Origin: a virus
Taxonomy: Duplodnaviria > Heunggongvirae > Uroviricota > Caudoviricetes
Direction: 5' to 3' (one strand)
DNA length: 7,262 bases
Virus record (IMG/VR): IMGVR_UViG_2734482562_000003
The notes beneath the pieces are model-generated. The model was given only the letters and a program-made list of their open reading frames with translations, was not told the origin of the DNA and ran no database searches. The translations under genes and the position numbers were made by a program. Of this stretch, positions 1 through 7,262 are shown in pieces; within the stretch, counting starts at the first letter, position 1, and each line of letters opens with the position of its first letter.

Positions 1-2
1 TT

Positions 3-380
3 ACCTACAAAGAGCAGCGCGACAAAAACGCAAGAGAACTGAAGCTGGCGAACGCAACCATTACTGACATGCAGCAGCGCCAGCGTGATGCTGATGCACT
101 CGATGCTAAATACACGAAGGAGTTAGCTGATGCGAAAGCTGAAAATGATGCTCTTCGGCGCAAGCTTGATAATGGTGGTCGGGTGCTCGTCAAAGGAAAA
201 TGCCCTGTGCCATCCTCAGCCGAAACCTCCAGCGCCTCCGGCATGGGCAATGATGCCACCGTCGAACTCTCTCCAGTTGCTGGACGAAACGTTCTCGGTA
301 TCCGGGACGGAATCATCAGCGACCAGACAGCATTGAGAATGCTTCAGGAGTACATCAGGATCCAATGCCTTGGGGGGTAG
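3..380 (+). CDS. Rz: Rz-like i-spanin (inner-membrane spanin subunit), 5' end cut by window edge
   Basis: Frame 3 is open from the window start to TAG at 378-380. The translation ([52 protein letters not shown]...) closely matches my recollection of phage lambda Rz (coiled-coil periplasmic region), and two Cys residues (KGKC and IQCLGG) sit where lambda Rz has its cysteines. The true start lies upstream of the window. Confidence 0.85.
130..336 (+). CDS. Rz1: Rz1-like o-spanin (outer-membrane lipoprotein), embedded in the +1 frame of Rz
   Basis: The ORF lies wholly inside Rz in a different frame. A strong RBS AAGGAG (117-122) sits 7 nt before the ATG. The N-terminus [21 protein letters not shown] is a lipoprotein signal peptide with lipobox-like VVGC, followed by a Pro-rich segment ([11 protein letters not shown]), as in lambda Rz1. 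Confidence 0.8.
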
Positions 381-468
381 CGGTAATTTTACTCATTATC
401 CTTCAAATCAGATTCTGTTGTCAGAGGAATGGGGGAAGCTGGATTCGCAAGAGCTTTTTATGGGCAGT

Positions 469-978
469 TTAGCTAAAAAAAGGCAACACGAAGCTAAAAC
501 TACCAACATAAAGTGCTGACCAGCTAGCAGCTGAAATCAGACTCACTGTATACACTTTCACTGGATGAAGTTGCAACATTCCTGCCACCAAAGGAGCAAT
601 ATAACGCAGCACGGCGATAAAGCGCGAAGTGAAAAGTATTGACACAGAGTTATTTTGCAACTGAAGGCGAACCCGTTCTATTGTATTGGAACGGCTTGAT
701 ATTATACATGCAAGTTGAGGGATATGCCCAATTATTATACCAAGATGGTAATTAACGATAGTACCGCACCATGCGCCACTCATGACCGTGATTCCAGCTT
801 CCCATGGTGAAAGAGTCGTCTTGCTGACTGTAATTACAGTGGCCATCATAATTGATGCTGGTGGCAATATCGCCGAAATGAGTAAAGTGGATTTTGTGAA
901 CGCTATTATAAAAAGAAGCCCCCATAGGCGATATGGATGAAGTACAAAATAGTTCATCAAAGCATTTATCCACTCCAT
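469..978 (-). CDS. YqaA/DedA-family polytopic inner-membrane protein (moron; function unknown)
   Basis: A 169-170 codon ORF on the minus strand with ATG at 978-976 (the ORF track starts one codon earlier at TTG 981-979) and TAA stop at 471-469. It is very hydrophobic with several predicted TM segments. The segments ILPPASIMMATVITVSKTTLSPWEAG and RFIAVLRYIAPLVAGM resemble the LLPGNSEVVLVAMLL...HPW and MPVVGDLLCLLAGW regions of E. coli YqaA as I recall it. An AAGGA-like RBS lies about 9 nt upstream on the minus strand. The region is visibly more AT-rich than the flanking phage genes. Confidence 0.65.
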   Translation of the reverse strand: MEWINALMNYFVLHPYRLWGLLFIIAFTKSTLLISAILPPASIMMATVITVSKTTLSPWEAGITVMSGAWCGTIVNYHLGIIIGHIPQLACIISSRSNTIERVRLQLQNNSVSILFTSRFIAVLRYIAPLVAGMLQLHPVKVYTVSLISAASWSALYVGSFSFVLPFFS

Positions 979-1162
979 CAATGTCTTTCCTTCTGTGAAT
1001 TTTTCTTTGCTATTTAACCGTGATACGACTTAATTTAGGCTTAAACACCTTACATTTACAAGGTACTCCTGTGGGGGGCCCTGCCACGGAGCGTCGCAGG
1101 AGTGAGTGATGAGGAAGAATTAAAGCAACCTATTGTGACAGGCAGCGATAACAGTAAATCAC

Positions 1163-1168
1163 AGGAAG
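1163..1168 (+). promoter_or_regulatory. Ribosome-binding site (AGGAAG) for the small terminase gene
   Basis: Purine-rich Shine-Dalgarno-like hexamer 7 nt upstream of the ATG at 1176. Confidence 0.5.
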
Positions 1169-1175
1169 CATAATC

Positions 1176-1940
1176 ATGGCAAAACCGGACTGGGAGGCCA
1201 TCGAATCGGCATACCGGGCCGGAGTCCTTAGCCTCCGTGATATAGGCGAGAAATACGGCGTTACAGAAGGGGCTATCAGGAAGAGGGCCAAAAAGCTTGG
1301 TTGGGCACGCAGTGGCGGTACGCAGGTTTGCAAAAATGGTACGCAAAAAAGGAAAGTGCGTACCAGCAGAAAGCCTGCCATTACTGGCCTTACACAAAAA
1401 AGTACGCAACTAAAAACAGAATCTACACCGGATACGAAACCGATACGCGGAATGCGTACCGATCCCCCGACTAACCCATTCCAACCCGGTAACCAGCAGG
1501 CATTAAAACACGGTGGTTATGCCCGTCGCCTTCTGCTCAAAGATGAGGTGATAGAGGACGCTAAAGCGTTGACGCTCGAGGACGAATTATTTCGCCTTCG
1601 TGCTAACAACCTTGTCGCTGCAGAGAATATTGGTCGGTGGTTGGTGTCGCTGGAAGATGCTAATGGGGACCAGGAAAGGAAGATGCTGATTGAAAATATC
1701 AGCGCCGCCGAGAAAGCAATGATGCGCAATACAGTTCGTATTGAGTCCATCGTTGGCACGCTTGCGACGGTAGGAAAAATATTTGCTGATACAGCCTACC
1801 GCAAGGCCGCCACTGATAAGGTGTCTCTGGAGGCTGATCGTCTTCGCCGTGATGCAGGTATTGATGATGGCAATGGAGAGCGTGACCTCAATGACTTCTA
1901 CTCTGACATCCAAACCGACGCTGAATCCGGCTTTACGTAG
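1176..1940 (+). CDS. terS: Terminase small subunit
   Basis: A 254-aa ORF directly upstream of, and overlapping, the large terminase. The N-terminus has a helix-turn-helix-like segment (LSLRDIGEKYGVTEGAIRKRAKKLGW), and the motif NPFQPGNQQALKHGGYA is typical of phage small terminases as I recall them. It follows a good RBS and ends with TAG at 1938-1940. Confidence 0.8.
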   Translation: MAKPDWEAIESAYRAGVLSLRDIGEKYGVTEGAIRKRAKKLGWARSGGTQVCKNGTQKRKVRTSRKPAITGLTQKSTQLKTESTPDTKPIRGMRTDPPTNPFQPGNQQALKHGGYARRLLLKDEVIEDAKALTLEDELFRLRANNLVAAENIGRWLVSLEDANGDQERKMLIENISAAEKAMMRNTVRIESIVGTLATVGKIFADTAYRKAATDKVSLEADRLRRDAGIDDGNGERDLNDFYSDIQTDAESGFT

Positions 1941-3294
1941 TTTCTGGACTATGCGGGCACGTAACAAAGTGCTTTATGGTGGTCGGTCATCGTCAAAATC
2001 ATGGGATGCCGCTGGCATTGCCATATTTCTGTCGAATAAATACACCCTGCGTTTTTGTTGTGCCCGTCAGATCCAGAATAAAATCGAAGAGTCGGTGTAT
2101 ACCCTGCTCAAAATTCAGATAGACAGGTTTGGTCTGCGGCACCGTTTCCGTATTCTGAACAACAAAATCATTAACCGGGTTACTGGCTCGGAATTTGTTT
2201 TTTATGGATTATGGCGCAACATCGAAGAAATTAAGTCACTGGAGGGGATCGATGTGTTGTGGCTGGAAGAAGCCCACGCACTGACGGAATACCAGTGGAA
2301 AATTCTGGAGCCAACGATCCGTAAAGAGGGTTCGGAATGCTGGTTCATATTCAACCCCGGACTTGTTACTGATTTCGTCTGGCGCAACTTCGTTGTTGAT
2401 CCGCCCGAAGGCACTCTCATCCGCAAAATTAACTATGACGAAAATCCGTTTCTGTCTGACACCATGCTTAAGGTTATCGACGCGGCGCGACGCCGTGATC
2501 CGGATGGTTTTAAACATGTGTATGAGGGCGTTCCGGAGTCTGATGATGATGCGGCAATCATCAAACTGTCTTGGATAGAAGCCGCAGTGGATGCGCACAA
2601 AACGTTAAATTTCGAACCCAGTGGAAGAAAGCGTATTGGCTTTGACGTGGCTGACAGTGGTACAGATAAGTGCGCTAACGTTTACCGTCACGGATCCGTT
2701 GTTTTCTGGGCCGACGAATGGAAGGCCAAAGAAGATGAATTACTGAAGAGCTGCCAGCGTACTTATCAGGCGGCGCTGGAGCGTGAAGCAGATATTGTTT
2801 ACGACTCTATCGGTGTTGGTGCGTCTGCCGGTGCTAAATTCTCTGAAATTAACGCTGACCGGAAGAGCGAGAACGCATACGCGCGACGTGTGAATTACCA
2901 GAGGTTTAACGCCGGTGCTGGTGTGCATGAGCCAGATGACGAGTACAACGGCATCCCCAACAAAGACTTTTTCGCAAATCTTAAGGCTCAGGCATGGTGG
3001 CTGGTGGCTGACCGTTTCAGAAATACGTTTAACGCCATTAACAACGGAGAACAGTATCCTGTGGATGAGCTGATCAGCATAGATTCTCGTTGTCCGTTGC
3101 TTGAAAAGCTGAAACTGGAACTGACAACACCTCATCGTGATTTCGACCGTAACGGACGTGTGATGGTCGAAAGTAAAAAAGACCTCGCAAAACGCGAGAT
3201 ACCGTCACCAAACGTTGCTGATGCATTCATTATGGCCTTCGCGCCAATCGATACATCGCTGGATATCTGGGAACAGCTGGGGAGACAGGCCTGA
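1891..3294 (+). CDS. terL: Terminase large subunit (ATPase plus nuclease)
   Basis: The long ORF is open from 1783, but the likely start is ATG 1891 (MTSTLTSKPTLNP...) with GGAGAG 10 nt upstream; alternative starts are 1864, 1873 and 1951. It contains a P-loop-like segment YGGRSSSKSW and a Walker-B-like IDVLWLEEAH. Overall it resembles, from memory, the Sf6-type large terminase (e.g. IKSLEGID, FVVDPP, and the C-terminal SPNVADAFIMA nuclease-region motif). Stop is TGA 3292-3294. Confidence 0.85.
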   Translation: MTSTLTSKPTLNPALRSFWTMRARNKVLYGGRSSSKSWDAAGIAIFLSNKYTLRFCCARQIQNKIEESVYTLLKIQIDRFGLRHRFRILNNKIINRVTGSEFVFYGLWRNIEEIKSLEGIDVLWLEEAHALTEYQWKILEPTIRKEGSECWFIFNPGLVTDFVWRNFVVDPPEGTLIRKINYDENPFLSDTMLKVIDAARRRDPDGFKHVYEGVPESDDDAAIIKLSWIEAAVDAHKTLNFEPSGRKRIGFDVADSGTDKCANVYRHGSVVFWADEWKAKEDELLKSCQRTYQAALEREADIVYDSIGVGASAGAKFSEINADRKSENAYARRVNYQRFNAGAGVHEPDDEYNGIPNKDFFANLKAQAWWLVADRFRNTFNAINNGEQYPVDELISIDSRCPLLEKLKLELTTPHRDFDRNGRVMVESKKDLAKREIPSPNVADAFIMAFAPIDTSLDIWEQLGRQA

Positions 3295-4760
3295 TGGCAC
3301 GAAACAAACAAGCCCTGCGGCGAACTGTGCAGGCCACAGCTGATGGTTATGAGAATTTTATTGCCCGCGTAGGGATGCAGACACCTAACCAGCACTCAGC
3401 ATCCACCTACCGGGCTAATTTCACCAGTCGTAACCGCATGCTGGTGGAATGGTCCTATCGTTCATCCTAGATCATCGGCGAAGCAGTCGATGCTATCCCG
3501 GATGATATGACCCGCAAAGGCATTCGCATCACTTCGGAAATTGATGCAAAAGATCGTGGCATTCTCGAATCACAACTGGATGAGTTGCAAATCTGGGATG
3601 CGCTGAATGACGTGCTGAAATGGTCGCGCCTCTACGGCGGCGCGGTGGGTTTCATCATGATTGAGGGGTAGGCACCAATGACCCCGCTGCGACCCGAAAC
3701 CATCGGTAAGGGCAAGTTTAAGGGGATTCTCCCGCTCGACCGCTGGATGGTCGACCCGGCACTGACCCGCCGCATTAAAGATATGGGGCCGGACCTGGGT
3801 AAACCTGAGTTTTACGATGTGGTGACCACAGCAACGGGAATTCCTGCCTGGCGCATTCATCACAGTCGCCTGATTCGCTTTGATGGCGTCACGTTGCCAT
3901 TTCAGCAGAAGATGACCGAGAACGAATGGGGAATGTCGGTTGTAGAGCGTATCTGGGATCGTCTTACCGCGTTCGACAGCGCTACTGTCGGCGCGGCGCA
4001 GCTGGTCTACAAGGCGCATTTGCGTACCTACAGCGTGGAGAAGCTACGCGAGCTTATCGCACTTGGTGGTCCTGCGTATGAAGCGTTGCTGAAGAATATC
4101 GACCTGATTCGACAGTTCCAGAGTAATGAAGGCATGACGCTCATGGACTCGCGGGATAAGTTTGAAACCCATCAGTACAGCTTCAGTGGTCTGGATGACA
4201 TCCTTTCGCAGTTTGTAGAACAGATTAGTGGCGCTGTTGGTATCCCACTGGTGCGGTTGTTCGGACAGTCCCCGAAAGGATTTTCTACCGGTGATGCAGA
4301 CCTTGCCAACTATTACGATCGCATCAGTTCGTTGCAGGAGAGGCGTTTACGTCTTCCGGTGCGGCGGATACTGGACATCATGCATCGTTCGGAACTTGGC
4401 AAGCCGCTGCCGGACGATTTCACGTTTGAGTTTAACCCGCTCTGGCAAATGTCTGATGTCGATCGCTCAACGGTGGCGTTAAACACCACCAACGCAATCA
4501 GTACGGCGCTGGGTGATGGTCTGATGACACTGAAAGCCGCTATGACTGATTTGCGAGAAAATTCTGACGTAACCGGCATCGGGGCATCCATTACCGACGA
4601 GGACATCGAGAATGCCGAAGATGAAGCGCCGCCCGGCATCGGCGAACCTGATGACGAACCGCAGGAGCCGTCAGGCGGAAATCCGGTATCGAACCAGCCT
4701 ACGCAGGATAGCGAGGGCGGTCGGAGACATCGTAAATGGTCGCTACGATGGTTCAAATGA
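3294..4760 (+). pseudogene. Portal protein gene interrupted by two in-frame amber (TAG) codons
   Basis: ATG at 3294-3296 overlaps the terL stop (TGATG), a classic translational-coupling junction. The same frame runs 488 codons to TGA 4758-4760, a typical portal size, at the portal position between terL and the head-morphogenesis gene. It is broken only by TAG at 3468-3470 (codon 59) and TAG at 3669-3671 (codon 126). The segments between the stops are protein-like, and the largest uninterrupted ORF (3678-4760, 360 aa) has its own GAGGGG RBS-like sequence. The portal assignment rests on size and synteny, not a recognised motif. Confidence 0.6.
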
Positions 4761-5430
4761 CAGTATCACGGAAATTATTGCGGCGCTGGAGCGTTACAGT
4801 GAAATCATCACCCCCTGGGCGACAAAGGTCGCGGAAAACTTTACTGCGGACCTAACCCGGCAGAACGAGAAAGTTTGGCGGCAACACAGCAAGAACATCA
4901 GTCGCGAGCTCCGCAATCTTGTGGAAAGCGCTCCTGTGGGCCAGGTGATGCAATCCATCATCGCCGAACAGGTCAAGTACATCAAATCTCTGCCTCTCGA
5001 GGCCGCAGACAGGGTGTACGACATCCAGAACAAAGCGATAGAGGCTGTTGTCACCGGTGGTCGGGCGGAGCAGTTTGCTAAAGAGATTGCATCTACCGGC
5101 GATGTTGCTAAGTCTAGGGCCGATCTGNNNNNNNNNNNNNNNNNNNNNNNNNNNNNNNNNNNNNNNNNNNNNNNNNNNNNNNNNNNNNNNNNNNNNNNNN
5201 NNNNNNNNNNNNNNNNNNNNNNNNNNNNNNNNNNNNNNNNNNNNNNNNNNNNNNNNNNNNNNNNNNNNNNNNNNNNNNNNNNNNNNNNNNNNNNNNNNNN
5301 NNNNNNNNNNNNNNNNNNNNNNNNNNNNNNNNNNNNNNNNNNNNNNNNNNNNNNNNNNNNNNNNNNNNNNNNNNNNNNNNNNNNNNNNNNNNNNNNNNNN
5401 NNNNNNNNNNNNATGAAAAGGGCAGCATAA
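4612..5430 (+). CDS. Putative head morphogenesis / minor head protein, interrupted by an assembly gap
   Basis: ORF with a GAGGA RBS 8 nt before ATG 4612. It overlaps the 3' end of the portal frame by 149 nt in another frame and sits between the portal and the scaffold-like gene. The central part is unknown (N run 5128-5412), so length and frame continuity across the gap cannot be verified. The function call is based mainly on synteny. Confidence 0.4.
   Translation: MPKMKRRPASANLMTNRRSRQAEIRYRTSLRRIARAVGDIVNGRYDGSNDSITEIIAALERYSEIITPWATKVAENFTADLTRQNEKVWRQHSKNISRELRNLVESAPVGQVMQSIIAEQVKYIKSLPLEAADRVYDIQNKAIEAVVTGGRAEQFAKEIASTGDVAKSRADLXXXXXXXXXXXXXXXXXXXXXXXXXXXXXXXXXXXXXXXXXXXXXXXXXXXXXXXXXXXXXXXXXXXXXXXXXXXXXXXXXXXXXXXXXXXXXXXMKRAA
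5128..5412. other. Run of 285 N (assembly gap or masked sequence)
   Basis: Directly visible in the sequence. True length and content are unknown. Confidence 0.99.
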
Positions 5431-5433
5431 CCC

Positions 5434-6654
5434 ATGAAATACTTTTTTGAGACCAGGCTCGGGGAAACCCGATACCGCCTGGCTGACGGCTCGTTGCTGT
5501 GCAAAGACGTGCCGATAGGACGAACAGGTAAGCAGCTCTATGGTGCTGATGACCTGCCAAAACTGAAACCCGATAAGTTCGGTGAAATAGTCGTCACGCG
5601 TTCTCCTGAGCAGGTATTCCATCCGGCCACGCTTGCCTCATTCGAAGGGATGAGCATCACGATCCTGCATCCTGAAGATGAAAACGGGAATGTGCGGCTG
5701 GTAAATCCCGAGAACTGGAAAGAGCTTGCTGTCGGGCACCTCCAGAATGTCCGGCGCGGGACGGGTGAGCAGTCTGATTTGATGCTGGCTGACCTTATCG
5801 TCAAAGACGAAAGCGCCATTCAGCTTATCGAAGATGGCCTGCGCGAAGTGTCGTGCGGCTATGACGCGGAGTACGAGCAGACCGAGCCAGGTAAAGCCGA
5901 GCAGGTCGATATTACCGGAAACCATGTGGCTCTTGTCCCTAAAGGCAGAGCCGGAAATCGTTGTGCAATTGGAGACAGAGACACAATGGCAAATCAAAAG
6001 AAAAACTGGTGGAACCGCATGCGTGCGGCCATCAAGACAGGAGATGCCGACACCATGAACGAACTGGTGGAGTCGGCTCCCGCATCGGTTACAGGAGATG
6101 AGGGGGATTTGCCGCAGGGCGTTAATCTCAACATCAACCTGTCCCCGCAGCAACCACTACCGGACAAAGCACCAGAGATGGGCGGAGATCCAACCGGCGA
6201 CAGTGATGATGACCTCAAAACATTACTGAAAGTCCTGCTGGCTAAGCTGGAAAGAAATGCCACGGGCGATAACGATAATAAGCCTGACGATAATCCGACC
6301 GGTGACGGCGAGGACGATGAAGAGGAAACCACGATTACTGGTGACTCAGCCTGGCGTGCCGAAGTTATCGTTCCGGGTATCGATCTGAGCCGTAAGATGA
6401 AACCGACCGCGTTCAAACGCGAGGTTCTGGCTTCTGCTGACAAAACGCTGGTTCGCCAGATAGTCGGTGATGCGGATATCCGCAAATTACCGAAACAATC
6501 GGTCGACATGGCGTTTAATGCCGTGTCTGAGGTTGCCAAAGGGCGAAACACCCGCGCCACCACCGGCGATGCACAGCGCCTAAACATGGGCATGACCAGT
6601 ATCGCTTCCCTGAACAAACAAAACGCTGAATTCTGGGCAAACCGTAAAGGGTAA
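5434..6654 (+). CDS. Putative capsid scaffolding / head maturation protein (DUF2213-like)
   Basis: A 406-aa ORF. The N-terminal region (RLADGSLLCKDVPIGRTGKQLY ... NHVALVPKGRAG) resembles what I recall of the DUF2213 phage head-protein family. It has a long acidic low-complexity central region with repeated TGD motifs, which is scaffold-like. It sits upstream of a small structural gene and the expected capsid gene. Confidence 0.55.
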   Translation: MKYFFETRLGETRYRLADGSLLCKDVPIGRTGKQLYGADDLPKLKPDKFGEIVVTRSPEQVFHPATLASFEGMSITILHPEDENGNVRLVNPENWKELAVGHLQNVRRGTGEQSDLMLADLIVKDESAIQLIEDGLREVSCGYDAEYEQTEPGKAEQVDITGNHVALVPKGRAGNRCAIGDRDTMANQKKNWWNRMRAAIKTGDADTMNELVESAPASVTGDEGDLPQGVNLNINLSPQQPLPDKAPEMGGDPTGDSDDDLKTLLKVLLAKLERNATGDNDNKPDDNPTGDGEDDEEETTITGDSAWRAEVIVPGIDLSRKMKPTAFKREVLASADKTLVRQIVGDADIRKLPKQSVDMAFNAVSEVAKGRNTRATTGDAQRLNMGMTSIASLNKQNAEFWANRKG

Positions 6655-6657
6655 AAA

Positions 6658-7164
6658 ATGAATAATGTATTTCTGTACCGGATGCCTGTTGGCATTGCCG
6701 GGGCTGTCTCTCGCCCGCAGGACTTAACCGTCGAACCGGTGGTCCTTAAATCCGATAACGCCTTCGCTGCCTATGGCCTGGCTGGTAAATACGATGATGA
6801 CGGTTTTTTCGTGCCGCTGGCAGATGGTGATACCGCAGACAAGGTGAAGGGGATCTACGTGCGCCCTTATCCGACCACGTCGCAGCCGGACATGGTTCGC
6901 CAGGTGGGAACAGGCAAGAACTTCCCGGGCGACGCCATGAAGCGTGGCTACGTGACCGTTAATCTCGGTTCTGATTTTGATGCCAGCACTATCAAAAAAG
7001 GCGATCCGGTATACGTTGTCGTCTCCACTGATGAATCCATCAAAGTGCCGCTGGGTGGATTCATGTCCACGTCAGTCAGTGGCAAAAACGTGGTGCTGAC
7101 CAACGCTGAATTCACAGGTGCCGGTGATGCTGACGGCAATGCAGAAATTTCCTGGAAGATTTAA
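6658..7164 (+). CDS. Putative head structural protein (decoration/cement-like), 168 aa
   Basis: ATG 6658 follows the upstream stop by 3 nt with an AAGGG RBS. The protein is Gly/Val-rich and beta-like, in the position occupied by small cement or decoration proteins in DUF2213-type head modules. The function is inferred from synteny only. Confidence 0.45.
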   Translation: MNNVFLYRMPVGIAGAVSRPQDLTVEPVVLKSDNAFAAYGLAGKYDDDGFFVPLADGDTADKVKGIYVRPYPTTSQPDMVRQVGTGKNFPGDAMKRGYVTVNLGSDFDASTIKKGDPVYVVVSTDESIKVPLGGFMSTSVSGKNVVLTNAEFTGAGDADGNAEISWKI

Positions 7165-7175
7165 GGAACAGACGA

Positions 7176-7179
7176 ATGA
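7176..7179 (+). pseudogene. Remnant 5' end (ATG plus 1 nt) of the next head gene, possibly major capsid, truncated by IS1
   Basis: An AAGGA RBS (7163-7167, overlapping the upstream stop) lies 8 nt before ATG 7176-7178. The IS1 terminal inverted repeat begins at 7180, so any gene starting here is disrupted after 4 nt. Confidence 0.35.
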
Positions 7180-7202
7180 GGTGATGCTGCCAACTTACTG
7201 AT
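7180..7202 (+). repeat. IS1 left terminal inverted repeat (IRL)
   Basis: GGTGATGCTGCCAACTTACTGAT, the canonical roughly 23-bp IS1 end. Confidence 0.85.
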
Positions 7203-7234
7203 TTAGTGTATGATGGTGTTTTTGAGGTGCTCCA

Positions 7235-7262
7235 GTGGCTTCTGTTTCTATCAGCTGTCCCT
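7235..7262 (+). CDS. insA: insA (IS1 transposition regulator / N-terminal transposase part), 5' fragment
   Basis: GTG start followed by codons for ASVSISCP, matching the InsA N-terminus MASVSISCPSC... The gene runs off the window end. Confidence 0.8.

Follow-up and report, generated by a model that had tools for sequence, protein, structure and literature searches.

Adjacent deletions promoted by IS1 were reportedly first described in the gal region of E. coli, by Reif and Saedler in 1975. The locus described here has three features in common with those deletions: an IS1 is kept at the junction, the DNA on one side of it has been removed, and a target duplication is lacking. It even happens to lie in the same chromosomal neighbourhood (gal-pgl-bio). 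It differs in being a fixed natural event in a prophage, for which we infer a transposase-dependent route. A second point of comparison is the group of SEN34-like and vB_EcoM-606R2-like temperate phages with their E. coli prophages, whose head genes follow the order terminase, portal (DUF1073/PF06381), Mu-F, DUF2213, cement and DUF2184 capsid; in Salmonella phage SEN34 itself, the gene after the cement gene is annotated as "major head protein". The prophage examined here has the same gene order. Compared with these phages, the Shigella version adds a DedA-family gene of non-phage type and the effector gene ipaHb, and the S. sonnei version is cut off at base 4 of the capsid gene. The third point of comparison is the degradation of Shigella genomes by insertion sequences: IS1 is the most abundant IS in all Shigella species, reference chromosomes carry 229-348 IS insertions each, and Shigella IS elements are known to interrupt genes and to cause deletions (Hawkey et al., 2020; PMC7373316). 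The prevalence of IS1, the interruption of genes and the deletions are all found again at this locus, which shows independent IS hits in different Shigella lineages. A description of this specific junction was not found in the literature searched, and the junction is present in published references such as 53G.

The stretch of DNA analysed (the window) is 7,262 nucleotides long and is the whole of a draft contig, CWZA01000181.1 of assembly GCA_001252415.1. It ends 83 bases into an IS1, a repeat that short reads could not be assembled across; in the Logan assembly of run ERR572917 (L014), a contig of 7,053 bases likewise stops shortly after entering IS1. The left end of the window, which corresponds to position 3380 of locus L005 from S. 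sonnei 53G, falls inside a phage lysis gene (Rz-like, PF03245) and not at an IS, likely because other prophages of the genome contain further copies of this lysis cassette. A DedA-family gene of 170 aa (VTT domain, PF09335) lies on the minus strand (469-981), after the lysis genes and before the terminase. It is absent from the sampled intact E. coli prophages (L004, L006, L007, L009 and L011) and present in all of the IS-rich loci recovered with it (L015-L024), so it appears to be an added non-phage gene that is specific to the Shigella version of the prophage.

From the terminase onward, the window holds a head module in the order large terminase (PF04466), portal (PF06381), Mu-F-like (PF04233), DUF2213 (PF09979) and cement (PF22758). 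The module is 98% identical to Escherichia phages vB_EcoM-606R2, -689R2, -611R5 and -683R1; for Salmonella phage SEN34 the identity is 83.5%. The portal gene (3294-4760, plus strand) is a pseudogene: translated alongside the intact 488-aa portals of related loci (L001 and L004), its reading frame contains two stop codons, W59* (3468-3470) and Q126* (3669-3671), so the portal nonsense codons pointed out in the earlier note are real. The Mu-F-like head morphogenesis gene is interrupted by a run of 285 N (5128-5412), where closed relatives have 249 real bases. The run is thus 36 bases longer than the real sequence and is a scaffold gap, not biology, which makes the listed 272-aa open reading frame across it (4612-5430) uninterpretable. 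The gap also accounts for the thousands of mismatches in an ungapped comparison of the window with closed genomes, so divergence was rejected as their cause; a tandem repeat, checked as a reason for the block left unaligned at the gap, was rejected as well. The DUF2213 gene follows (5434-6654, plus strand, 406 aa), and the last intact gene ahead of the junction is that of the 168-aa Gp24-like head cement or decoration protein (6658-7164, plus strand; Pfam PF22758 Phage_cement, "structural cement protein Gp24" in RefSeq), which ends in a TAA at 7162-7164.

The next gene of the module is present as a stump. A ribosome-binding site, AAGGA (7163-7167, plus strand), overlaps this TAA and lies 8 nt ahead of an ATG (7176-7178), which is followed by an A at 7179; the end of the window therefore reads ...TGGAAGATT TAA GGA ACAGACGA ATG A / GGTGATGCTGCCAACTTACTGAT..., where the slash marks the junction. 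The same AAGGA is found upstream of intact capsid genes. It had been proposed from this arrangement that the ATG at 7176 is where the major capsid gene or next head gene should begin, and 13 intact loci bear this out: in all of them the ATG starts a 313-aa major capsid gene of PF09950 (formerly DUF2184), annotated or called at 8777 in L001 and at 10519 in L004, L006, L007, L009 and L011. Intact relatives continue from the start as ATGATTACTTTT (MITFDQATVD...), also read as ATGATTACTTTTGATCAG (MITFDQ...), and the window switches to other sequence after ATGA, at the point where the remainder of the intact open reading frame begins TTACTTTTGATCAG... Because the intact relatives diverge from the window at exactly this point, the break can be placed unambiguously at 7179/7180, behind base 4 of the capsid gene. 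The remnant, ATGA (7176-7179, plus strand), runs on into the IS as ATG AGG TGA (7176-7184), that is, M-R-stop; with 4 nt left in the window it is the stump of a PF09950/DUF2184 gene and not a member of the family. The earlier description of the break as 4 nt after the start codon had the right site but was loosely worded, since the break is really one base past the ATG.

What follows is IS1. The element begins at 7180 with insA on the plus strand, and its left inverted repeat occupies 7180-7202, as had been read from the letters of the window. The 83 terminal bases (7180-7262, GGTGATGCTGCCAACTTACTGAT...) comprise the 23-bp inverted repeat, the bases after it and the first 28 bases of insA, and they match exactly the start of a 768-bp element at 10523-11290 of L005, of which only this first 83 bp fall within the window. 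The complete element in L005 is a typical IS1: it has terminal inverted repeats of about 23 bp (the left one begins GGTGATGCTGCCAACTTACTGAT and the right one, at 11268-11290, ends ...ATCAATAAGTTGGAGTCATTACC), its length is 768 bp, it codes for InsA (PF03811, PF12759) and InsB (PF03400) on the plus strand, as expected of an IS1 (InsA and InsB', the latter as InsAB' by frameshift), and its identity to a copy annotated as "IS1-like element IS1A family" is 99.7%. The GTG start of insA, converted from L005 position 10578, is at 7235-7237 of the window, on the same strand as the late operon, in agreement with the orientation first assigned to it. A query containing the IS1 piece gave 73,013 matches across 5,015 of 5,426 complete E. 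coli genomes; since the phage part of the query is found in only 335 records, most of these matches can only be to the IS1 part. The identification as IS1 (IS1A-like, with which the element shares the terminal inverted repeat, the length of 768 bp and insA/insB on the plus strand) is no chance match.

Protein look-ups with the cement and DedA-family sequences led to closed chromosomes with the same prophage, and the sequence beyond the IS1 is read from these near-identical genomes and not from the window's own strain. Eight of them (L002, L003, L005, L008, L010, L016, L021 and L022) have an identical left junction. Alignment to the window was made for five of the eight (L002, L003, L005, L008 and L010), which are 100% identical to it over positions 1-5127 and differ by 1-2 bases over 5413-7262; the single base that separates the window strain from the closed genomes is a T at 6233 in the DUF2213 gene, a private substitution. 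Two of the eight are identified as S. sonnei: L005 is from strain 53G (HE616528.1), of lineage II, and L010 is from strain 75/02 (CP019689), of lineage IIIc (PMC5447701). The phage-IS1 junction, queried as 38 bases, had no exact match in contigs of a one-genome-per-species collection, and neither it nor the junction of IS1 with the sequence on its right is in any of the 5,426 complete E. coli genomes. In the one-genome-per-species collection, Shigella is presumably merged into E. coli.

A fresh IS1 insertion is flanked by a target duplication of 8-10 bp (usually 9 bp), and the earlier note, which took the IS1 to have severed a structural gene at its second codon, suggested looking for this duplication and for an open reading frame of the capsid gene resuming after the right end of the element. 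Both searches were carried out on the closed genomes. All eight contain the full 768-bp IS1 and an identical right junction, at which the end of IS1 abuts AACAGGGGGATTTACC ATG CTT ATT GGC TAT GTA CGC GTA... The 9-bp flanks, GACGAATGA on the left and AACAGGGGG on the right, are unrelated in all eight, and the 8-bp and 10-bp alternatives do not match either. The sequence expected after a simple insertion (the end of IS1, then GACGAATGA, then TTAC...) is absent from all 24 loci recovered, and no capsid sequence follows the IS1 in the eight closed genomes. Instead, the right junction lies 16 nt upstream of a truncated pin-like invertase gene, a stump of 43 codons, the first 109 bases of which match pinE (a site-specific DNA recombinase) at about 87-91% identity. 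About 260 bp further to the right come pgl, ybhD, a second IS1, ybhJ, ybhC and a lambdoid integrase. The break in the capsid gene is thus real, but it is not a simple insertion with the remainder of the gene resuming on the other side. The missing duplication and the missing capsid remainder, each named in the earlier note as a result that would speak against its reading, mark the site as the junction of an IS1-bounded deletion. The lack of a duplication is expected after a deletion or after recombination between IS copies.

The undeleted arrangement can be seen in two genomes. The right flank occurs in only 2 of the 5,426 complete "E. coli" genomes, FDAARGOS_943 and FDAARGOS_944, and both also hold the head genes of the window at 99.9% identity. 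Both genomes are IS-rich and have ipaH; FDAARGOS_943, rich in IS1 in particular, is on these grounds Shigella- or EIEC-like. In this genome (NZ_CP065615.1) the two flanks, positions 5718-10522 and 11291-13246 of L005, map in the same order and orientation with 20,630 bp of contiguous prophage between them (2051425-2072054); in FDAARGOS_944 the separation is 19,075 bp. The right breakpoint falls, in the undeleted sequence, between ...GTCTTGTT and AACAGGGGG, and there is no IS1 at either breakpoint in FDAARGOS_943 or FDAARGOS_944. In other words, the flanks are collinear and in the same orientation, and the undeleted relative has extra DNA between them, which is the pattern of an IS-bounded deletion. 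The ancestral state is taken from a different lineage with IS insertions of its own (FDAARGOS_943 also has an IS2 in the terminase and an internal stop in the Mu-F gene), so the size of the deletion in S. sonnei is approximate.

According to the RefSeq annotation, the interval in FDAARGOS_943 contains the rest of the capsid gene, head-completion and neck proteins, a tail assembly chaperone, and baseplate, spike and tail-fibre genes. DUF3383 and DUF3277 proteins in it are sheath-like and tube-like, as read from the Pfam names of their homologues, and a 650-aa lytic transglycosylase is read as the tape measure from its size and position. Also within the interval are two IS1 copies of that strain's own and, between the tail-fibre genes and the pin stump, the type III secretion effector gene ipaHb (L012 17700-19526), so the IS1-bounded deletion also removed an ipaH copy. 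The prophage and its surroundings are not equally similar between the two lineages: the prophage head region of S. sonnei (L005) is 99.85% identical to that of FDAARGOS_943 (L001 and L012), and the chromosomal neighbours are less alike (98.4% for pgl-ybhD and 97.2% for ybhJ). Judging from these identities, the prophage and the backbone may have different histories.

The junctions are in place in all eight of these closed genomes, the duplication is absent, the flanks are collinear with those of the undeleted relative, and the arrangement is conserved across S. sonnei genomes. We are confident, on these grounds, that the IS1 at the junction is the scar of a deletion of about 19-21 kb in a decaying, SEN34-like, myovirus-type and ipaH-carrying S. 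sonnei prophage. The left end of the IS1 abuts base 4 of the capsid gene and, in the closed genomes of the same clone, its right end abuts the far end of the prophage, beside chromosomal pgl. Judged from the undeleted relatives, the DNA lost between them held what remained of the capsid gene, the genes for head completion, neck, sheath, tube, tape measure, baseplate and tail fibres, and ipaHb. One route to this product would be the adjacent deletion known for IS1: a resident copy transposes replicatively to a nearby target on its own molecule, the DNA in between would be lost as a circle, and the IS1 would be left between one old and one new sequence, and for that reason without a duplication.

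The other route that would lead to the same deletion is RecA-dependent homologous recombination between two directly oriented copies of IS1, a first one inserted at capsid base 4/5 and a second inserted 16 nt ahead of the pin stump. The hybrid IS1 left by the crossover would keep the left copy of the first insertion's duplication and the right copy of the second's. [quoted passage not shown] On the other hand, recombination of this kind needs two independent insertions in the same orientation followed by a crossover, against one insertion and one intramolecular event for an adjacent deletion. Neither of the two single insertions turned up in the 24 loci or in the 5,426 E. coli genomes, and the IS1 copies in FDAARGOS_943 sit at other positions and in opposite orientation. 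We regard recombination between two IS1 copies as a serious contender that falls somewhat short of an even chance. The two routes give an identical product, which sequence does not separate, and an intermediate with a single IS1 and its own duplication was found neither among the 24 loci nor among the 5,426 E. coli genomes. The choice between them is close to balanced, with a slight preference for the adjacent deletion because it needs fewer events.

The remaining explanations fare much worse. An inversion or translocation mediated by IS1, after which the block from capsid to tail would survive elsewhere beside another IS1, has some attraction in that Shigella genomes are heavily rearranged through IS elements (PMC8072062). 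It is nevertheless quite improbable: both flanks belong to the same prophage, in the order and orientation of the undeleted relative, which is the signature of a deletion, and an inversion would have reversed one flank, when neither is reversed. The simple insertion favoured in the earlier note, with IS1 in the second codon and the capsid gene resuming after a 9-bp duplication, is compatible with the left junction taken alone, and historically the first step may well have been such an insertion, though it need not have been. As a description of the present locus it is more doubtful still: it is refuted for the eight closed genomes by the flanks and the sequence to the right of the IS1, the arrangement it predicts is in none of the 24 loci, and no complete E. 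coli genome has the phage-IS1 junction. Finally, a chimeric contig end is a natural suspicion for a short-read draft contig that has an internal N gap and ends in a repeat, but with the identical junction in eight independently closed chromosomes and in the Logan assembly of ERR572917 an assembly artefact can practically be dismissed.

With the deletion as the preferred reading, two further observations concern the surroundings of the junction and the same prophage in other strains. The second IS1 to the right (L005 13888-14655, also in L002, L003, L008 and L010) is 2.6 kb from the junction IS1 and inverted relative to it. It too has no target duplication, with AATACCCTG on one side and CAAAAAAGG on the other. 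The element breaks ybhH off after 17 nt, its end is 26 nt from ybhJ, and it replaces 2,822 bp of FDAARGOS_943 sequence (ybhH' and ybhI). An IS1 that lacks a duplication and stands in place of about 2.8 kb shows that IS1-bounded deletions recur at this locus. The two copies bracket pin'-pgl-ybhD in the manner of a composite element, but transposition of such an inverted pair was rejected: with respect to ybhJ-ybhC the order of pgl-ybhD is native, and no duplication is common to the two outer flanks.

In six other genomes of 4.4-4.65 Mb (L015, L017, L018, L019, L023 and L024), the same DedA-carrying prophage decays differently. The capsid start is intact in all six, the 313-aa capsid gene is called in five (the exception being L019), and all six have the 488-aa portal. 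An IS3-family element is in the terminase region, and another truncates the prophage after the capsid gene and an 81-aa open reading frame. IS elements have here struck one prophage independently in different lineages. Genomes of other Shigella lineages were sampled for intermediates, but with an intact capsid start and other IS elements these do not reveal in which order the events took place in S. sonnei.

For the prophage, the consequence is clear. It had been argued that it cannot make capsids, and this holds, with the capsid gene reduced to 4 nt and two nonsense codons in the portal gene. The conclusion is in fact strengthened, as no tail genes remain either: the remnant can build neither heads nor tails and is a fixed cryptic prophage. 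The junction is common to lineages II (53G) and IIIc (75/02) and so predates their split, and it could serve as a stable marker of the species or clone. For the reading of draft genomes, a phage-IS1 junction at the end of a contig should not be taken for a simple gene disruption, since the one described here hides a deletion of about 20 kb in which the whole tail module and a copy of an ipaH effector gene are gone.

It is conceivable, as a long shot, that the loss was not neutral decay but was selected in the S. sonnei ancestor through ipaHb and the effector repertoire, or that the placement of the IS1 might alter the expression of pgl. If the first were true, the loss of ipaHb would contribute to the distinct effector repertoire of S. 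sonnei; if the second were true, the relevant feature would be an IS1 directly behind the ribosome-binding site of the late operon, with the pin stump starting 16 nt beyond it and pgl following. The type of event is already known and is ordinary IS1-driven decay of prophage and genome in Shigella. The importance of the finding beyond annotation is accordingly small, and it adds one more documented case of IS1-driven decay in Shigella.
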